DNA from: Candidatus Magasanikiibacteriota bacterium
Lineage (GTDB): Bacteria > Patescibacteriota > Patescibacteriia > Magasanikbacterales > GWA2-37-8
Assembly (NCBI GenBank): GCA_963802255.1
Contig: CAWDHY010000001.1
Span: 555,842-619,841, forward strand
Length of the DNA: 64,000 nt
Direction of reading: 5' to 3'
The notes under the pieces were generated by a model, which was not told where the DNA came from, did not search any database, and saw only the letters and a program-made list of their open reading frames with translations. Made by a program: the position numbers and the translations under genes. Shown piece after piece: positions 32,824 through 38,027 of the stretch. Numbering within the stretch: the first letter of the stretch is position 1; the number at the start of each line of letters is the position of its first letter.

Positions 32824-32830
32824 TTTATTA

Positions 32831-32856
32831 AAAAACGAGCCTAGAGCTCGTTTTTT
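32831..32856. terminator. Bidirectional terminator shared by rnhA (+) and dnaJ (-)
   Basis: Hairpin ACGAGC-ctaga-GCTCGT with the dnaJ stop codon in the loop. A-run on one side, T-run on the other. Confidence 0.6.
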
Positions 32857-33938
32857 AATTCTTCCAACAACTGTTTTGTTTTTTTACTGATTTTTTTTGG
32901 TACTCGTATTTTCACGCGAACATAATGGTCTCCCCTGCCCGACCGGCCCAGATGAATAATTCCACGCCCTTTAAGACGAATTAACTGACCTGACTCGGTT
33001 CCCTCAGGTACAATCACAGTCAAGTCGCCATCCAAAGTTGGTACCTGAATTTTATCGCCGAGCGCGGCTTGAGTAAAATTTATTTCGGATTCCGTGTAAA
33101 CATCAAAATTTTCGCGATGAAAAAGTTTTTGTGGTTTAATATGAACGCGAACATACAAGTCTCCGGCCGGCGCGCCATGTGGAGCGGCTTCACCATGTCC
33201 TGACAAACGAATTGCCTCACCGTCGTCAATGCCGGCAGGTATTTTAACTTTAATTGCCGATGTCTTTGACAAAACGCCATCACCTCCGCAATGTTTGCAT
33301 TTTGCCGACGGTTTCTGCCCACGCCCGTGGCATTCCGGACATGTCGTAACCGTTTGCATTACGCCTAAAAATGTTCTCTGCTGTTGTACAACTTGTCCTT
33401 GACCACGGCAAGCCGAACAAGTATCCATCTTGCTACCCGGTTCCGAACCGCTACCATGACAAACATCACATTTTGACTGCTTACGCAAAGAAATTTCTTT
33501 TTCAATACCAAATGCCGCTTCTTTAAAATCTAATTCCGCATCAACCTGAATATCACGGCCGCGGCCTTGTCCTCTTCCGCCGCCGAATGATGACCCGCCC
33601 TGAGATGAAAAACCGAAAATATCGCCAAATATATCTCCAAGGTCAATTCCGCCGGAAAAACCACTCTGTCCACCGCGCGCCGCGCGCATAAAATCATCCC
33701 AGCTGGCACCGCCAAAACCGCCCTGCTGTTCAAAATCAGCACCAAATTGATCGTATTTGGCTCTTTTTTCAGCGTTACCGACCACCTGAAAGGCTTCATT
33801 AATCTCTTTGAATTTTTTTTCATCTCCTCCCGGCCGGTCCGGATGATACTGCATGGCCAATTTTTTAAAGGCCTTTTTTATTTCATCCTGAGTCGCTGAT
33901 TTATCCACCCCAAGTAATTTATAATAATCCTTTGACAT
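32841..33938 (-). CDS. dnaJ: Chaperone DnaJ
   Basis: J-domain with HPD (YHPDR), a G/F-rich linker, four CxxCxGxG zinc-finger repeats and a C-terminal domain. Confidence 0.9.
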   Translation of the reverse strand: MSKDYYKLLGVDKSATQDEIKKAFKKLAMQYHPDRPGGDEKKFKEINEAFQVVGNAEKRAKYDQFGADFEQQGGFGGASWDDFMRAARGGQSGFSGGIDLGDIFGDIFGFSSQGGSSFGGGRGQGRGRDIQVDAELDFKEAAFGIEKEISLRKQSKCDVCHGSGSEPGSKMDTCSACRGQGQVVQQQRTFLGVMQTVTTCPECHGRGQKPSAKCKHCGGDGVLSKTSAIKVKIPAGIDDGEAIRLSGHGEAAPHGAPAGDLYVRVHIKPQKLFHRENFDVYTESEINFTQAALGDKIQVPTLDGDLTVIVPEGTESGQLIRLKGRGIIHLGRSGRGDHYVRVKIRVPKKISKKTKQLLEELKNEL

Positions 33939-33940
33939 AA

Positions 33941-35854
33941 TTATTTAACCACTTCTCCCTCAATCGGCCCTTGATCACCGCTTTTATCATCATCTGTTTT
34001 TTGACCGCTATTTTCTGAAGTTTGACCGGTACCGTCGGTTTTTTGTCCGGCAGAATACATTTTTACTCCGACTGCTTGTGCCGACTTTGACAAAGCGTCA
34101 CAGGCTTTTTTAATAGCCTCAACATCATCTTTATCTTTCACATCCTTAACCCATTTTAGCCCTTCATCAACATTTTTCTTTTCGTCATCAGTAATGGCAA
34201 CTTTCTTTTCTTCAACTTCTTTCATCATTTTTTCAGTCGTATAAATCATTGTATCAGCAATATTTTTTACTTCAATCAACTCCTGTTTTTTCTTGTCGTC
34301 AGTCGCATGTGCTTCCGCTTCCTTCTTCATTCTTTCCACTTCTTCTTTAGAAAGGCCGGAAGAAGCCTCGATGCGAATTGACTGTTCTTTATTAGTCGCC
34401 TTATCTTTTGCTTTGACATTCAAAATTCCATTTGCGTCAATATCAAATGTTACCTCAACTTGAGGTACACCGCGTGGAGCCGGTGGAATTCCATCAAGCA
34501 TGAAACGACCGAGAGTTTTATTGTCACCAACCATTGGCCTTTCTCCCTGCAAAACGTGAATTTCCACACCAGGCTGATTATCAGCCGCTGTGGAAAATAT
34601 TTGCGTTTTCGAAGTCGGTATGGTCGTGTTCCGATCAATAAGTTTGGTCATCACACCACCCAAAGTCTCCAGTCCGAGCGACAATGGAGTGACATCCAAT
34701 AATAGTATGTCTTTCACTTCACCCTTGAGCACGCCGCCTTGCACGCCGGCGCCAATTGCTACAACCTCATCAGGATTCACTGTAATATTTGGCTTTTTTC
34801 CAAAAAACTTTTCAACAACAGATAAAACTAACGGCATACGGGTCATTCCGCCAACTAAAACTATTTCTTCTATATCAGAGGCCTTTAATTTAGAGTCTTC
34901 AAGCGCTTTACGAACCGGTTCCAATGTTTTATCAACCAAATCACCGACTAATTCTTCGAGTTTTGACCGTGTCAGTTTCATCACTAAATGTTTTGGCCCT
35001 GATGCGTCAGAAGTGATAAACGGCTGATTAATCTCACTTTCCTGAGCTGTGGATAACTCAATTTTCGCTTTTTCAGCCGCTTCCTTAATACGTTGTAAAG
35101 CTAAATTGTCCTGGCTCAAATCAATGCCTTGTTCCTTTTTGAATTCATCGATAATCCAGTTAATCAGGACCTGGTCAAAATCATCACCGCCTAAATGAGT
35201 ATCTCCGTTGGTTGAAAGAACTTGTACATTATCAGGAGCAACTTCAAGAATGGAAATATCAAAAGTGCCGCCGCCCAAATCATACACTGCAATCTGCTGA
35301 TTTGTCTTTTTGTCAAAACCATAAGCTAACGCCGCCGCAGTCGGCTCGTTAATTACACGAAGCACGTTCAAGCCGGCAATTTCACCGGCATCTTTTGTCG
35401 CTTTTCGCTGGGAATCGTCAAAGTATGCCGGAACAGTAATAACGGCATCCGTAATTTTTTCGCCGATTCGTTCTTCAGCGTCCGCTTTCATTTTTCCCAA
35501 TATCATGGCTGAGATTTCCTGAGGAGAATATTCTTTTCCCTGCATCAGCACCTTTACACCTTCGCCGGCCTGCACAATTTTAAAAGGCATTAATTTCAAG
35601 TCTCTCTGAACTTCTGCGTCATCCCATCTTCGGCCAATCAGACGCTTAATTGAATACAGCGTATTTTCAGGATTGGTTACAGCCTGACGCTTTGCTAATT
35701 GTCCAACCAGCCGTTCGCCTGATTTTGAAATTGCCACAATCGACGGAGTGGTCCGCGCCCCTTCCTTATTTTCCAATACTTTCGGCTGACCTCCCTCAAT
35801 AATCGCCATACATGAATTAGTTGTTCCGAGATCAATTCCAAGTACTTTAGACAT
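33941..35854 (-). CDS. dnaK: Chaperone DnaK (Hsp70)
   Basis: [13 protein letters not shown] and DLGGGTFD signatures. I prefer the start [10 protein letters not shown] at 35854; the track start 35893 would overlap the hsp20 3' end. Confidence 0.9.
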
Positions 35855-35867
35855 AAAAAATTTTGAT

Positions 35868-36293
35868 TTATTTTTTAACAACTTTAACATCAACTTTTTT
35901 TGTTTTGGTTGATAGAGCTTTCGGGCATGTAATTTTTAATACTCCGTTCTTAAATTCAGCCGAAACCTTATCTTCTAAAACCGGTGCCGGTAAGGCAAGA
36001 ACCCGATAAAATGAGCCGCTTCGTACTTCTTTCCGGTAATAATTTTTTTCCTCAACCTCATGCTCTTTTTTTGTTTCTCCCTTAAGCGTCAGCACGCCTT
36101 TTTCCACACTCACGGAGACATCCTCCGGCCGCATGCCGGCAAGTGGTGCTTCTACCACGACGGTCTTCTCATCTTCGTATATATCCACCGGCGGCACAAA
36201 AGCTTTTAACGACGGATTTACTGCCGGCAGGCGCATCGTATCGTCAAACTCGGCAAAAGGGTCCCAAATTGGAGACCAACGGATTAATGACAT
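35868..36293 (-). CDS. Hsp20/alpha-crystallin-family small heat shock protein
   Basis: 141 aa with an alpha-crystallin domain (...[13 protein letters not shown]...VLKITCPK). Confidence 0.8.
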
Positions 36294-36351: not shown

Positions 36352-37236
36352 TTATTTTCCCACCAAAACCCTCGCCGCTTTGATCACCCTATCACCCATT
36401 TTGAAACCGGCAGATATTTCTTTTGTTATTTTATCTCCTTTTTCACCGGACACCTCTTCGTAGCCAACCGCTTCATGTAACCTCGGGTCAAATTTTTCCC
36501 CTACGGTTTTTATTTCTTCCACATTATGGGCTTTAAATATATCGGCAAACTGTTTTAGCACGTGTCTAACTCCATCCAACCATGCATTATTCTCTCCTAC
36601 TGTCTGATCATTATTAATAGCCAATTTTAAATGCTCATATACCGGAATAAACTCTTCCAAAATTTGCTGTTCGCTCATTTGCGCCCATTCTGCACGCCGT
36701 AAAACAATTTCTTTCTGCAAATTCTGATAATCAGCCAATGCTCTTTGCCAATTGATTTTTAATTCATCAACCTCATTAGACGCATTTTTATCCTCAAAAT
36801 GTTTAATATAAAAATTAATTGTTGCAGCGGTAAAGGAGTCAATTTTATATTTCTTATTTGTTAAAGCTTCCCGCGGATCCTCCCAAACCCATTCACTCAT
36901 TTCTCTGCTTATTTTTAGCTCACCACCGCACATATGAACAGCATAATCCAAAAAAATAAAATGAGCTTTGCGGTGAAACATTTTTGGTGCATTCGCTTCC
37001 TGAAAACCGATATATTCAACCTGGTCGACTTCTAACCCGGTCTCCTCTAAGATTTCGCGCTTAACAGTGTCTTCACAAGATTCACCGAGCTCAACATGCC
37101 CGCCGGGAATATGCCAGCGTTCACCCCACTTGGACGAACGTATTAGAAGCACTTTTCCCTCATCATTATATATTAGCGCGCCGACAGTCGGCTCCGGATA
37201 TGTTTGTTTCCATTCTGGATTATATTCAGCAGGCAT
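36352..37236 (-). CDS. grpE: Nudix hydrolase domain fused to nucleotide exchange factor GrpE
   Basis: N-terminus has a perfect Nudix box G-x5-E-x7-REUxEExGU: GHVELGESCEDTVKREILEETGL. C-terminus is GrpE-like with a coiled coil and the beta-sheet domain: KFDPRLHEAVGYEE...GDRVIKAARVLV. It sits in the grpE slot of hrcA-grpE-dnaK-dnaJ. Confidence 0.75.
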   Translation of the reverse strand: MPAEYNPEWKQTYPEPTVGALIYNDEGKVLLIRSSKWGERWHIPGGHVELGESCEDTVKREILEETGLEVDQVEYIGFQEANAPKMFHRKAHFIFLDYAVHMCGGELKISREMSEWVWEDPREALTNKKYKIDSFTAATINFYIKHFEDKNASNEVDELKINWQRALADYQNLQKEIVLRRAEWAQMSEQQILEEFIPVYEHLKLAINNDQTVGENNAWLDGVRHVLKQFADIFKAHNVEEIKTVGEKFDPRLHEAVGYEEVSGEKGDKITKEISAGFKMGDRVIKAARVLVGK

Positions 37237-37240
37237 AGTT

Positions 37241-37930
37241 TTATTTTATAAAATTATAGACGGCATTTATCACAGCCAGGTTTTTTTTATAATTCATGCG
37301 CGTTGGCCCTAAAATAATAAATAACCCATCTTTCGTTTTTCCTAAACGGCTCGCGACGACGCTTAAATAATTACCAAATGGGTGCTCGCTGCCGATAAAA
37401 ATACTGGGATCAGCCTTAACTTTACCGACAAATTTATCCAAACAATCTTCACACCGGTCAAACATCTTTGATGTGCTGATAACCATGTCCGTATTAACAA
37501 ATTCCGGTTTCTCAAATAAATTTGAAAAACCCGTGTAATAGACTTTATCCAGAGTAAACGCAACAATAATCGCCTCACGTGAAATATTTGCCGATTCTTT
37601 TGCCACCGCTTTACATGAGGATTCATATTCTTTATATCCTCTAAAAGCGCTTTCTATCCCTAAGAATTCTTTGTTTGTAATTTTAACTTTATCTTTTTGA
37701 AAGGCCTCCACATAAAAACGGTAGCCAAGCTCAGTGGGTATGCGGCCGGCTGAAGTATGCGGATGAGTTAGATATCCGGCTTCTTCTAGGGCGCGCAAGT
37801 CATTTCTGACTGTCGCTTCACTCCAGCCAATTTTTTCCTCATATGCCAAAAATTTTGAACCGACCGGCACAGCCGTTTCGATAAAATTTTCTATTACTAA
37901 GTTAAGCAGTTCTTTTTGGCGATTTTCCAT
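37241..37930 (-). CDS. hrcA: Heat-inducible transcription repressor HrcA (short form)
   Basis: N-terminal winged-helix region LLNLVIENFIETAVPVGSKFL...TVRNDLRALEEAGYLTHPHTSAGRIPT. It is immediately preceded by a CIRCE-like operator. At 229 aa it is shorter than canonical HrcA. Confidence 0.75.
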   Translation of the reverse strand: MENRQKELLNLVIENFIETAVPVGSKFLAYEEKIGWSEATVRNDLRALEEAGYLTHPHTSAGRIPTELGYRFYVEAFQKDKVKITNKEFLGIESAFRGYKEYESSCKAVAKESANISREAIIVAFTLDKVYYTGFSNLFEKPEFVNTDMVISTSKMFDRCEDCLDKFVGKVKADPSIFIGSEHPFGNYLSVVASRLGKTKDGLFIILGPTRMNYKKNLAVINAVYNFIK

Positions 37931-37973: not shown

Positions 37974-38000
37974 TTATCACTCTTCTACTTCGAGTGATAA
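37974..38000 (-). promoter_or_regulatory. CIRCE-like inverted repeat (HrcA operator variant)
   Basis: TTATCACTC-N9-GAGTGATAA, against the consensus TTAGCACTC-N9-GAGTGCTAA. It lies directly upstream of hrcA and overlaps the -10/TSS of the promoter below. Confidence 0.75.
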
Positions 38001-38027
38001 TATACCAGAGCCTATCCACAGTGTCAA
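37999..38027 (-). promoter_or_regulatory. Sigma70-type promoter of the hrcA-grpE-hsp20-dnaK-dnaJ operon
   Basis: On the minus strand: TTGACA, a 17-nt spacer, then TATATT, followed immediately by CIRCE. Confidence 0.65.

Follow-up and report, generated by a model that had tools for sequence, protein, structure and literature searches.

Among the eukaryotic Hsp70 exchange factors, those of the BAG family carry accessory N-terminal domains that link the chaperone cycle to other processes, although their fold and lineage are unrelated to those of GrpE and their accessory domains are not nucleotide hydrolases. GrpE itself ranks among the most thoroughly studied co-chaperones. Canonical GrpE proteins, such as those of E. 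coli (1DKG), G. kaustophilus (4ANI), T. thermophilus (3A6M) and M. tuberculosis (8GB3), share the stalk block, the glycine, the bundle and the beta domain with the protein described here. However, they begin with a disordered N-terminal tail of about 30 residues that carries a DnaK-binding motif and has a direct role in substrate release from DnaK (PMC12915176, PMC10803776). In the E. coli protein, the hydrophobic tail motif 17-IIM-19 binds the groove of the DnaK SBD (PMC12915176), residues L63-R75 contact the SBD loop and the linker (PMC12915176, PMC10803776), and the substitution G122D is inactivating (PMC12915176). In the fusion described here, a predicted folded Nudix enzyme of 135 residues is found instead of the tail, and the initial annotation was therefore right to call this a non-standard GrpE architecture. 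The genetic setting is shared, with grpE located between hrcA and dnaK under CIRCE control, as in many Gram-positive-type lineages.

Within the 64-kb window (the whole stretch of DNA that was analysed), we found neither a second grpE nor a second Nudix gene. The gene in question, nudix::grpE, starts with ATG, ends with TAA and encodes 294 aa, including both peptides quoted in the initial annotation (Table 1). The reading frame is continuous between the Nudix and GrpE halves, with 0 stops and 0 frameshifts, and no Met codon intervenes between M113 and M187, so that there is no internal ATG start for a separate GrpE. An exact-sequence look-up of the 294-aa protein identified an identical copy on a 628,439-bp NCBI/ENA contig, and the same protein, with the same neighbours, was present on an independent 7,478-bp Logan assembly of run ERR12035938. 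Thus, the single-polypeptide Nudix-GrpE fusion claimed at the outset is borne out, and the stop or frameshift between the two domains that was to be looked for in the raw reads is absent from an assembly made independently from them.

Table 1. Features of the nudix::grpE locus (window positions; aa numbers refer to the 294-aa protein).
Feature	Position	Strand	Basis or remark
Promoter, sigma-70-like TTGACA-17-TATATT with TG extension	37999..38027	-	consensus match
CIRCE-like operator TTATCACTC-N9-GAGTGATAA	37974..38000	.	sole match in the window at <=3 mismatches
hrcA, short form, 229 aa	37241..37930	-	TIGR00331, E 9.7e-47; Pfam HrcA C-terminal domain
nudix::grpE, complete gene	36352..37236	-	single ORF, 294 aa plus stop; two Pfam domains above cut-offs
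Nudix fold, aa 14-146 (beta-grasp core and C-terminal helix 134-146)	36799..37197	-	Pfam, AF2, Foldseek
Nudix box, aa 46-68, GHVELGESCEDTVKREILEETGL	37033..37101	-	conserved across 116 fusion homologues
GrpE domain, aa 151-294 (stalk helix, four-helix bundle, beta domain)	36355..36786	-	Pfam, PDB matches, AF2
Stalk block, aa 164-176, QRALADYQNLQKE	36709..36747	-	equivalent to E. coli GrpE L63-R75
hsp20 (alpha-crystallin family), between grpE and dnaK	35868..36293	-	Pfam HSP20, E 8.7e-21
dnaK	33941..35893	-	Pfam HSP70, 855 bits
dnaJ	32841..33938	-	Pfam DnaJ, DnaJ_CXXCXGXG, DnaJ_C
Intrinsic-terminator-like hairpin, 15-bp stem and T tract, at the end of dnaJ	32827..32859	-	closes the transcription unit

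The transcription unit reads promoter-CIRCE-hrcA-nudix::grpE-hsp20-dnaK-dnaJ-terminator, with all genes on the minus strand, and this gene order is common to every fused locus. Accordingly, the initial placement of the fusion in a heat-shock operon stands, but the order hrcA-grpE-dnaK-dnaJ given for it has to be amended, because hsp20 sits between grpE and dnaK; hsp20 is also found in most related loci. The candidate promoter, assigned purely by consensus, matches at 11 of 12 positions and is the best site in the scan, with a -10 element that abuts CIRCE. The CIRCE-like operator, of which 0.01 would be expected by chance in the window, precedes the hrcA start by 44 nt. The true start of dnaK is probably the ATG at 35854.

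The N-terminal part of the protein matches the Pfam NUDIX profile PF00293 over aa 15-128 (E 5.2e-24; 85.2 bits against a cut-off of 21.1), in line with its first description as a domain with a textbook Nudix box. The box is complete with respect to the consensus GX5EX7REUXEEXGU (G46-x5-E52-x7-R60-E61-I-L-E64-E65-T-G67-L68). In an alignment of 116 fusion homologues at 40-74% identity, G46, E52, R60 and E65 are present in all 116 sequences and E61 and E64 in 115; outside the box, H92 is likewise universal (116/116), and E112 and W118 are each retained in 115/116. The AF2 model of the Nudix domain alone (pLDDT 90.8, pTM 0.84) displays the alpha/beta/alpha Nudix fold, and Foldseek aligned this domain model with many solved Nudix enzymes at TM 0.71-0.76. 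Together, these comparisons show that the N-terminal ~135 residues correspond, as judged from sequence and model, to a minimal Nudix fold with an intact catalytic box that is kept family-wide.

The nearest stand-alone relatives of the fused domain belong to a widespread family of Nudix proteins of ~140 aa (P0121-P0240), which are 42-52% identical to it over ~90% of its length. These proteins come from Firmicutes, Anaerolineales, archaea and others, and often carry the JGI name 'nucleoside triphosphatase'. They share with the fused domain the Nudix box and the signature P14, G19, K36, W37, H47, F87, H92, E112 and W118, but differ from the fusion in being single-domain proteins, and no characterised member of the family was found. 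For the two stand-alone relatives that were examined, the gene context is unrelated to heat shock. In an NJ tree, a single split divides all 119 of the nearest stand-alone Nudix proteins from all 132 GrpE-fused domains, which argues that the fusion has persisted through deep divergence.

More remote comparisons were directed at the substrate class. A single-sequence PDB search returned generic matches alone (E about 4e-9 or weaker), and a profile search retrieved NudI and 4KYX at ~1e-15/1e-16, followed by AtNUDX1 and MutT types. NudI/YfaO (6DT3, 3OGA, 3N77), which is among the best characterised profile matches (E 9e-16 to 2e-14), and the minimal NTP/ApnA Nudix hydrolases (Aquifex Ap4A hydrolase 3I7U, T. 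thermophilus Ndx1 and MutT1/Rv2985) resemble the fused Nudix in having a minimal single-domain fold with a complete box, but are just 20-27% identical to it. By structure, the best matches (E ~2e-10, TM 0.71-0.76) were Ap4A/Ap6A hydrolases, NudI and MutT1; the Aquifex Ap4A hydrolase ranked at the top (E 1.7e-10), with NudI, Ndx1, MutT1 and NUDT12 scoring essentially equally. Because these rankings are flat, with the full model and with the domain model (all matches of the latter near E 1e-10), a substrate is not transferable from the NudI-, MutT- or ApnA-type relatives. The domain also fell far short of three NCBIfam equivalogs, namely MutT TIGR00586 (36.1 vs 97.9 bits), NAD diphosphatase NF001299 (50.2 vs 158 bits) and pyrimidine (d)NTP diphosphatase NF007834 (35.5 vs 156 bits). 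ADP-ribose pyrophosphatases of the Nudix superfamily are reportedly marked, by a rule attributed to Dunn et al. 1999, by a conserved proline about 16 residues past the Nudix box. In the window protein, P84 lies 16 residues past L68, and this proline is present in just 84 of the 116 fusion homologues.

The initial assignment of the C-terminal part as a bona fide GrpE domain is equally well founded. Pfam GrpE PF01025 matches aa 151-294 (E 1.2e-33; 116.6 bits against a cut-off of 25.8) at profile positions 22-165 of 165, and PDB sequence matches of the domain include 4ANI (E 3e-15), 3A6M and 1DKG. The cut-off of the best NCBIfam GrpE equivalog, NF010738, was missed (85.8 vs 137 bits); since the NCBIfam GrpE models are lineage-specific, this low score reflects divergence rather than non-membership. 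The stalk block, in which R165 maps to residue 64 of E. coli GrpE, shows the strongest conservation within the family, with A166, A168, D169, Y170 and N172 invariant. F230, G277 and V290 are further invariant residues among the 116 fusion homologues, G222, the equivalent of E. coli G122, is retained in 115 of them, and the C-terminal FDPxxHEA and G[YF] motifs are conserved. The secondary structure in the AF2 model (helices 134-208 and 218-236, beta strands 239-293) is that of a GrpE fold, and the top Foldseek matches of the full model include an integrative model of GrpE with DnaK (9A81). Thus, profile coverage and residue conservation show the C-terminal 144 residues to be a complete GrpE, with its predicted DnaK-contact elements conserved.

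In the AF2 model of the full protein (pLDDT 88.2), helix 134-208 runs unbroken from the Nudix fold into the GrpE stalk; this is a monomer prediction, and the junction is less confident, with pLDDT 77-85 over aa 151-200. The Nudix domain is therefore predicted to stand where the disordered N-terminal tail of GrpE normally is, joined by one continuous helix. Just ~13 residues lie ahead of the Nudix fold, and no IIM-like motif was identified in them.

Nudix-GrpE is a recurrent architecture in Patescibacteria and is not confined to one genome. Nudix plus GrpE was present in all of the best 120 homologues, down to 40% identity, and those that are named are Patescibacteria. Among the top 150 clusters at 50% identity, about 50 extend over the two domains, the in-frame, contiguous fusion occurs at 16 of 80 species-representative loci, and the same architecture recurs in hundreds of homologues drawn from NCBI, JGI, ENA and Logan. 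At loci of identical synteny, the close relatives L011, L013 and L015 encode a plain GrpE, and the Nudix module is thus dispensable for GrpE function. Other close relatives that keep this gene order encode DUF1653-GrpE, Nudix-Nudix-GrpE or HD-GrpE. More generally, Patescibacterial GrpE proteins were found with a plain tail or with Nudix, Nudix-Nudix, DUF1653, DUF1653-Nudix or HD (YpgQ-type) modules at the N-terminus. The GrpE and DnaK trees, which like the Nudix tree were built by NJ and are indicative only, show fused and unfused forms interleaved, and the similarity patterns of the Nudix and GrpE halves are partly discordant. A literature search found no function for DUF1653, the single PDB match of which is an uncharacterised structural-genomics entry (3BE3).

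The HD-GrpE proteins of other Patescibacteria (P0292, P0388/P0504 and P0389) are a parallel to Nudix-GrpE. They occupy the same slot in the order hrcA, fusion, dnaK, their additional module is attached to the stalk at the same place, and this partner, too, is predicted to be a metal-dependent nucleotide pyrophosphohydrolase, with Lin1889 (3B57) and B. subtilis YpgQ (5DQV) as the best PDB matches. The HD module retains residues aligned with the YpgQ metal-binding motifs HDWxH, HD and DAD (metal-ligand numbering from PMC8177086). HD-GrpE differs from Nudix-GrpE in that its all-helical HD domain is unrelated in fold to Nudix and in its rarity, with three divergent clusters found. That nucleotide pyrophosphohydrolases of two unrelated folds have come to sit at one GrpE site argues that hydrolase activity is selected, and the tandem Nudix-Nudix-GrpE forms point the same way.

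Taking the gene structure, the domain assignments and the proposed functions jointly, we put the probability that nudix::grpE encodes a protein with two real functions, characteristic of part of the Patescibacteria, at about 0.5. Under this main reading, the fusion protein would still be a DnaK nucleotide-exchange factor, and the Nudix module would be an active pyrophosphohydrolase for nucleoside polyphosphates, its substrates being (d)NTPs that are non-canonical or in excess, or else dinucleoside polyphosphates, for example Ap4A. The fusion could thereby place nucleotide 'house-cleaning' or alarmone clearing under heat-shock control, fix the hydrolase at a 1:1 ratio with GrpE and bring two copies of it next to each other on the dimeric stalk. 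With the tail replaced, substrate release would rest on stalk contacts and ATP rebinding; in L004 and L006, where a hydrophobic-CxxC linker is retained, this linker may add to substrate release. A large group of the ultra-small Patescibacteria has swapped the GrpE tail for an apparently intact Nudix enzyme, and a second lineage has done likewise with an unrelated HD enzyme whose predicted chemistry is similar. This pattern suggests that selection ties nucleotide hygiene, or the turnover of alarmones, to the chaperone machinery of the heat-shock response, and it amounts to a natural experiment on the purpose of the GrpE tail.

The idea of the initial annotation that nucleotide clearance could be coupled to the Hsp70 cycle would be in keeping with the conserved catalytic residues and with the HD-GrpE parallel in the same operon slot. 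A closer coupling can be envisaged, in which the tethered hydrolase destroys nucleotides that compete with ATP at the nucleotide-binding domain of DnaK, such that ADP, Ap4A or damaged adenine nucleotides expelled on opening of the pocket would be degraded and exchange would become directional or 'proofread'. The recruitment of two unrelated folds, Nudix and YpgQ-type HD, to the GrpE terminus, the strict conservation of the catalytic residues and the Ap4A hydrolase as top fold match would all suit such a mechanism, as would the reports that Ap4A crosslinks to DnaK, GroEL and ClpB and that apaH mutants are heat-hypersensitive (PMC10148737). Nevertheless, we consider it unlikely, because the model places Nudix at the far end of the stalk, past the SBD-contact block, whereas the beta domain that opens the nucleotide pocket is at the opposite end of GrpE, presumably several tens of angstroms from it. 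In addition, small molecules are free to diffuse, the characterised proteins closest in sequence are NTP pyrophosphohydrolases rather than ADP hydrolases, and many close relatives either lost the module or never acquired it. It likewise appears unlikely, on the predicted geometry, that the Nudix domain takes ADP straight from the DnaK pocket; ADP channelling was disfavoured on account of the stalk-tip position and of the nearest homologues being (d)NTP/ApnA pyrophosphohydrolases. Somewhat more speculative is the idea of GrpE as a nucleotide-aware exchange factor, the Nudix or HD module of which, located on the stalk beside the DnaK SBD, would clear DnaK-poisoning nucleotides or tune release: Ap4A or oxidised ATP/dATP might be removed, or their binding might tune the coiled-coil thermosensor and substrate release. 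If true, the Hsp70 cycle would respond, in a way so far overlooked, to alarmones or to the quality of the nucleotide pool, and the binding of Ap4A to DnaK, observed decades ago, would gain its first molecular rationale.

Alternatively, the main role of Nudix could be to cap the GrpE coiled-coil, as a structural element or by binding a ligand, with catalysis secondary; it might stand in for the tail in modulating substrate release or make the stalk thermosensor nucleotide-responsive. This would be compatible with the identity of the replaced element, the one shown to bind the DnaK SBD groove (PMC12915176), with the predicted rigid helix through which Nudix adjoins the conserved SBD-contact block, with the non-catalytic DUF1653 module that can hold the same place and with the L031 lineage, in which the Nudix domain is kept despite a degenerate box. 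However, without catalysis it is difficult to account for near-absolute catalytic glutamates in 116 sequences as divergent as 40% identity, the stand-alone enzymes bear exactly this signature, and the HD module keeps its residues aligned with the YpgQ metal-binding motifs, which leaves a primarily non-catalytic role distinctly improbable. Against the main reading count the flat substrate ranking, the missed NCBIfam cut-offs, the DUF1653 module at the same site, the degenerate box of L031 and the plain-GrpE relatives. These plain-GrpE relatives also fit near-neutral accretion at a permissive terminus, in which inserted genes in compact genomes fused to a tolerant, disordered GrpE N-terminus, with shared transcription and translation as the only benefit and no functional tie to the chaperone. 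The high variability of Patescibacterial GrpE N-termini, the interleaving of fused and unfused forms on the trees and the partial discordance between the two halves are in keeping with it. We regard such accretion as more doubtful still, given that the partners are non-random (nucleotide pyrophosphohydrolases make up two of the three types, and hrcA, which usually lies upstream, is not among them), that no separate Nudix gene adjoining grpE, as a possible fusion precursor, was found within 6 kb at 62 unfused loci, and that the fusion has persisted through deep divergence. Finally, the sequence derives from a metagenome-assembled genome, in which assembly, binning or gene calling might have joined two genes; with an identical ORF in an independent assembly, hundreds of homologues of the same architecture across four data sources, contiguous in-frame domains in 16 species-representative genomes and a continuous predicted helix across the junction, this is hardly credible, and an assembly or gene-calling artefact was rejected on the independent assembly and the homologue architecture.

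In public databases, the fusion proteins are annotated simply as 'nucleotide exchange factor GrpE', and a literature search on the Nudix-GrpE fusion, including Patescibacteria/CPR, found no description of it. Several hundred database entries named just 'GrpE' carry a second function, which is probably enzymatic. Further Nudix genes were observed in the vicinity of grpE at individual loci: at L038, a Nudix gene lies about 5 kb from grpE, and at L012, an extra Nudix ORF is located upstream of a gene that is already fused.

The fusion of a Nudix hydrolase domain to GrpE is real and not an artefact. It is encoded by an unbroken ORF of 294 codons that includes both peptides quoted in the initial annotation, and an exact look-up recovered the identical protein from a 628-kb NCBI/ENA contig. 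The independent Logan assembly of run ERR12035938 also contains the identical protein, again flanked by hrcA and hsp20. Both halves belong to one gene, as had been claimed. Pfam places NUDIX (PF00293) at residues 15-128 (E = 5e-24; score 85 bits, cut-off 21) and GrpE (PF01025) at residues 151-294 (E = 1e-33; score 117 bits, cut-off 26; match to profile positions 22-165 of 165), which bears out the earlier description of a genuine GrpE preceded by a textbook Nudix box, complete at residues 46-68 (G46-x5-E52-x7-R60-E61-I-L-E64-E65-T-G67-L68). There is no Met codon between M113 and M187, so that no internal ATG could start a separate GrpE, and the 64-kb window contains no GrpE or Nudix match besides the fusion.

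Of 1065 homologues retrieved from 5.8 billion proteins, the best 120, down to 40% identity, all combine PF00293 with PF01025; a few of the 120 are named just 'bacterium', and those with a taxon-specific name are Patescibacteria (Magasanikbacteria, Falkowbacteria and Parcubacteria). When 1.84 billion 50%-identity representatives were searched exhaustively with phmmer, about 50 of the best 150 clusters spanned both domains. Furthermore, among the best 80 GrpE-encoding loci from a scan in which each GTDB species was represented by one genome, Nudix and GrpE are contiguous and in one frame in 16, a 17th (L031) carrying a degenerate Nudix domain, and all fused loci retain the order hrcA, fusion, (hsp20), dnaK, dnaJ. 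Public databases contain many proteins of this architecture, most under the plain name GrpE and a few labelled as Nudix enzymes, and we found no paper describing or analysing the fusion in the accessible full-text literature. It would come as a surprise to chaperone specialists and is easily testable.

In an alignment of 116 fusion proteins, 41-74% identical to the window protein, the box residues G46, E52, R60 and E65 and, beyond the box, H92 are present in all 116, and E61, E64, E112 and W118 in 115. In the GrpE half, A166, A168, D169, Y170, N172, F230, G277 and V290 occur in every sequence, and G222 in 115. The most conserved GrpE block is residues 164-176, QRALADYQNLQKE; R165 aligns with residue 64 of Escherichia coli GrpE (sequence matches to 4ANI, E = 3e-15, 3A6M and 1DKG), and the block is therefore equivalent to E. 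coli L63-R75, the stalk segment that touches a loop of the DnaK substrate-binding domain (SBD) and the interdomain linker (PMC12915176, PMC10803776). G222 aligns with E. coli G122, and the G122D substitution inactivates E. coli GrpE (PMC12915176).

The full-length AlphaFold2 model on this alignment has a mean pLDDT of 88, rising above 94 in the Nudix core (residues 15-133). In this model, the last Nudix helix and the GrpE stalk are predicted to form one unbroken helix (residues 134-208), followed by the second bundle helix and the beta domain. Whereas residues 1-33 of canonical E. coli GrpE are a disordered tail, a Nudix globule takes that place here. The E. coli tail binds the DnaK substrate groove via 17-IIM-19 and drives substrate release (PMC12915176), and the Mycobacterium tuberculosis tail is likewise supported in this role (PMC10803776); the ~13 residues preceding the window Nudix fold contain no IIM-like motif. 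Some related GrpE ORFs, fused and unfused, carry a CxxC just before the stalk helix, often after a hydrophobic SFF, GLF or SFW, and the window protein has neither. With two copies in each GrpE dimer, the CxxC could serve as a Zn or disulfide clamp; the hydrophobic motif might correspond locally to the IIM motif of the E. coli tail.

The fusion shares its strand with the flanking hrcA, hsp20, dnaK and dnaJ (see the table). The CIRCE-like repeat, a candidate HrcA operator, occurs once, against a chance expectation of 0.01, and the best sigma-70-like promoter of the region has its -10 element directly beside the repeat. Together, the promoter, the repeat, the co-directional genes and the terminator place the fusion second in one heat-shock transcription unit. 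The operon had been given as hrcA-grpE-dnaK-dnaJ, which is correct in position and order but omits the hsp20 between grpE and dnaK. Most related loci have hsp20 there; it is missing in L006, L011, L014, L019 and L020. The CIRCE variant has T/A instead of the consensus G/C in both arms. Throughout this lineage HrcA is a short protein of 229-242 aa, whereas TIGR00331 has 338 positions; it matches the HrcA domain in the N-terminal winged-helix part and at the C-terminal end, and lacks the region in the middle.

Features of the window and of related loci and proteins
Feature	Location or members	Strand	Remarks
Nudix-GrpE fusion	36352-37236	minus	294 aa
hrcA, short	37241-37930	minus	229 aa; first gene, then fusion, hsp20, dnaK, dnaJ
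hsp20	35868-36293	minus	between grpE and dnaK
CIRCE-like inverted repeat	37974-38000		TTATCACTC-N9-GAGTGATAA; 44 nt upstream of hrcA
Near-consensus extended -10 promoter	38027-37999		overlaps CIRCE-like operator
Terminator-like hairpin	after dnaJ		15-bp stem
Other short hrcA	L011 5174-5902; L086 5279-5998
Separate Nudix ORF and Nudix-GrpE gene	L012:1083-2368		Nudix ORF directly upstream
Degenerate Nudix-GrpE	L031:6001-6786
CxxC, fused	L004, L006
CxxC, unfused	L013, L014, L015, L019, L020, L026, L042, L063, L078, L080, P0257
DUF1653-GrpE	L027, L032, L034, L035, L048, L050, L053, L066; P0449, P0451, P0469
DUF1653-Nudix-GrpE	P0051, P0102
Nudix-DUF1653-GrpE	P0351
Nudix-Nudix-GrpE	P0252, P0286, P0295		~450 aa
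HD-GrpE	P0292, P0388/P0504, P0389; loci L085-L087		YpgQ/Lin1889-type

Many stand-alone proteins of about 140 aa from unrelated phyla are related to the window Nudix (42-52% identity, ~90% coverage), and fused and stand-alone domains have P14, G19, K36, W37, H47, F87, H92, E112, W118 and the box in common; the gene contexts of the two stand-alone relatives examined were uninformative on function. The best profile match of the family is the R. felis entry 4KYX (4.5e-16), followed by the NudI nucleoside triphosphatases 6DT3, 3OGA and 3N77 (9e-16 to 2e-14) and then by AtNUDX1 and MutT-type enzymes. A Nudix-only AlphaFold2 model (pLDDT 90.8) gave a flat Foldseek ranking (E ~2e-10, TM 0.71-0.76) with Aquifex Ap4A hydrolase, NudI, Ndx1 (Ap6A), MutT1/Rv2985 and NUDT12, and the window protein reached no NCBIfam equivalog threshold. 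Together, the profile and fold matches point to a class, and the domain is predicted to be a minimal Nudix enzyme for nucleoside polyphosphates, (d)NTPs or ApnA.

The grpE ORFs extracted from each of the 80 loci show that the patescibacterial GrpE N-terminus is modular, most commonly a tail of 10-50 residues, acidic or Lys/Glu-rich; in L011, which has the SPFH-hrcA-grpE-dnaK synteny of the window, the plain-tailed GrpE is 171 aa long and 61% identical to the window protein in the GrpE domain. In eight of the 80 loci, a 62-aa DUF1653 (PF07866) is fused directly to GrpE, as confirmed with Pfam, and this form occurs in many Patescibacteria; the literature searched yielded no function for DUF1653, and the one relative with a solved structure, 3BE3, is itself uncharacterised. 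The Nudix domain of L031 has G46V, E61R, E65N, H92E and E112K and, judging from these substitutions, is probably catalytically dead although kept. The L012 fusion has a partly degenerate box (E61K and E64D). Additionally, HD-GrpE proteins from three divergent clusters in independent datasets occupy the slot between hrcA and dnaK, and their HD domain is nearest to Lin1889 (3B57) and Bacillus subtilis YpgQ (5DQV), a Mn-dependent (d)NTP pyrophosphohydrolase (PMC8177086). HD-GrpE is a non-homologous analogue of Nudix-GrpE, with an unrelated fold of the same general predicted chemistry at the same attachment point on GrpE. We take this pattern, the strongest evidence available, to suggest that selection at the GrpE N-terminus favours nucleotide pyrophosphohydrolase activity. 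Neutral accretion of domains onto the GrpE terminus is weakened as an explanation, because the choice of partner is non-random.

In neighbour-joining (NJ) trees built from the GrpE domain and from DnaK, genes with and without the fusion are interleaved. The fused L004 is the sister of the unfused L015, and the two differ essentially in a Nudix versus an acidic tail, each upstream of a common SF[FW]...CxxC linker. One split of an NJ tree separates all 132 fused Nudix domains from their 119 nearest stand-alone relatives, and the similarity patterns of the two halves are partly discordant: the window protein is 58% identical to L001 in Nudix and 44% in GrpE, but 41% and 55%, respectively, to L004. 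The simplest reading, which NJ and identity data cannot prove, would be a single ancient fusion event, after which there were repeated losses and some exchange of modules. Whatever the history, GrpE as such can function without the Nudix module.

A complete, conserved GrpE and a complete, conserved Nudix catalytic site are joined here in a heat-shock operon, the tail having been replaced. We infer that the protein would still be a DnaK exchange factor and that its Nudix module would be an active (d)NTP/ApnA-type pyrophosphohydrolase. The fusion would put the hydrolase under HrcA-regulon induction and fix it 1:1 with GrpE, and the dimeric stalk would display two Nudix copies as a pair. Direct capture of ADP from DnaK by the Nudix module appears unlikely, because in the model the module joins the far end of the stalk, beyond the SBD-contact block, whereas the beta domain that opens the nucleotide pocket lies at the opposite end, and because its closest relatives are not ADP hydrolases. 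In our estimate there is a minority prospect of another role: the module might remove nucleotides occupying DnaK, in keeping with the known crosslinking of Ap4A to DnaK, GroEL and ClpB and the heat sensitivity of apaH mutants (PMC10148737), or else it might modulate substrate release or the stalk thermosensor.

A single 403-aa homologue, P0098, has a C-terminal S1 RNA-binding domain after Nudix-GrpE; either it is a true three-domain protein, or the gene call may have run on into the following gene. Many CAxxxx 'TPA_asm' contigs titled 'uncultured Gammaproteobacteria bacterium' (L002, L004, L007, L013, L014, L019, L022 and others) are Patescibacteria-like in gene content, synteny and similarity, and the organism labels of these third-party MAG records look unreliable. 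Finally, GC skew is below zero in all 4-kb bins of the window (1-64000; cumulative -2.33) and the genes examined at 32.8-42.7 kb are all on the minus strand, which fits a window wholly inside one replichore.
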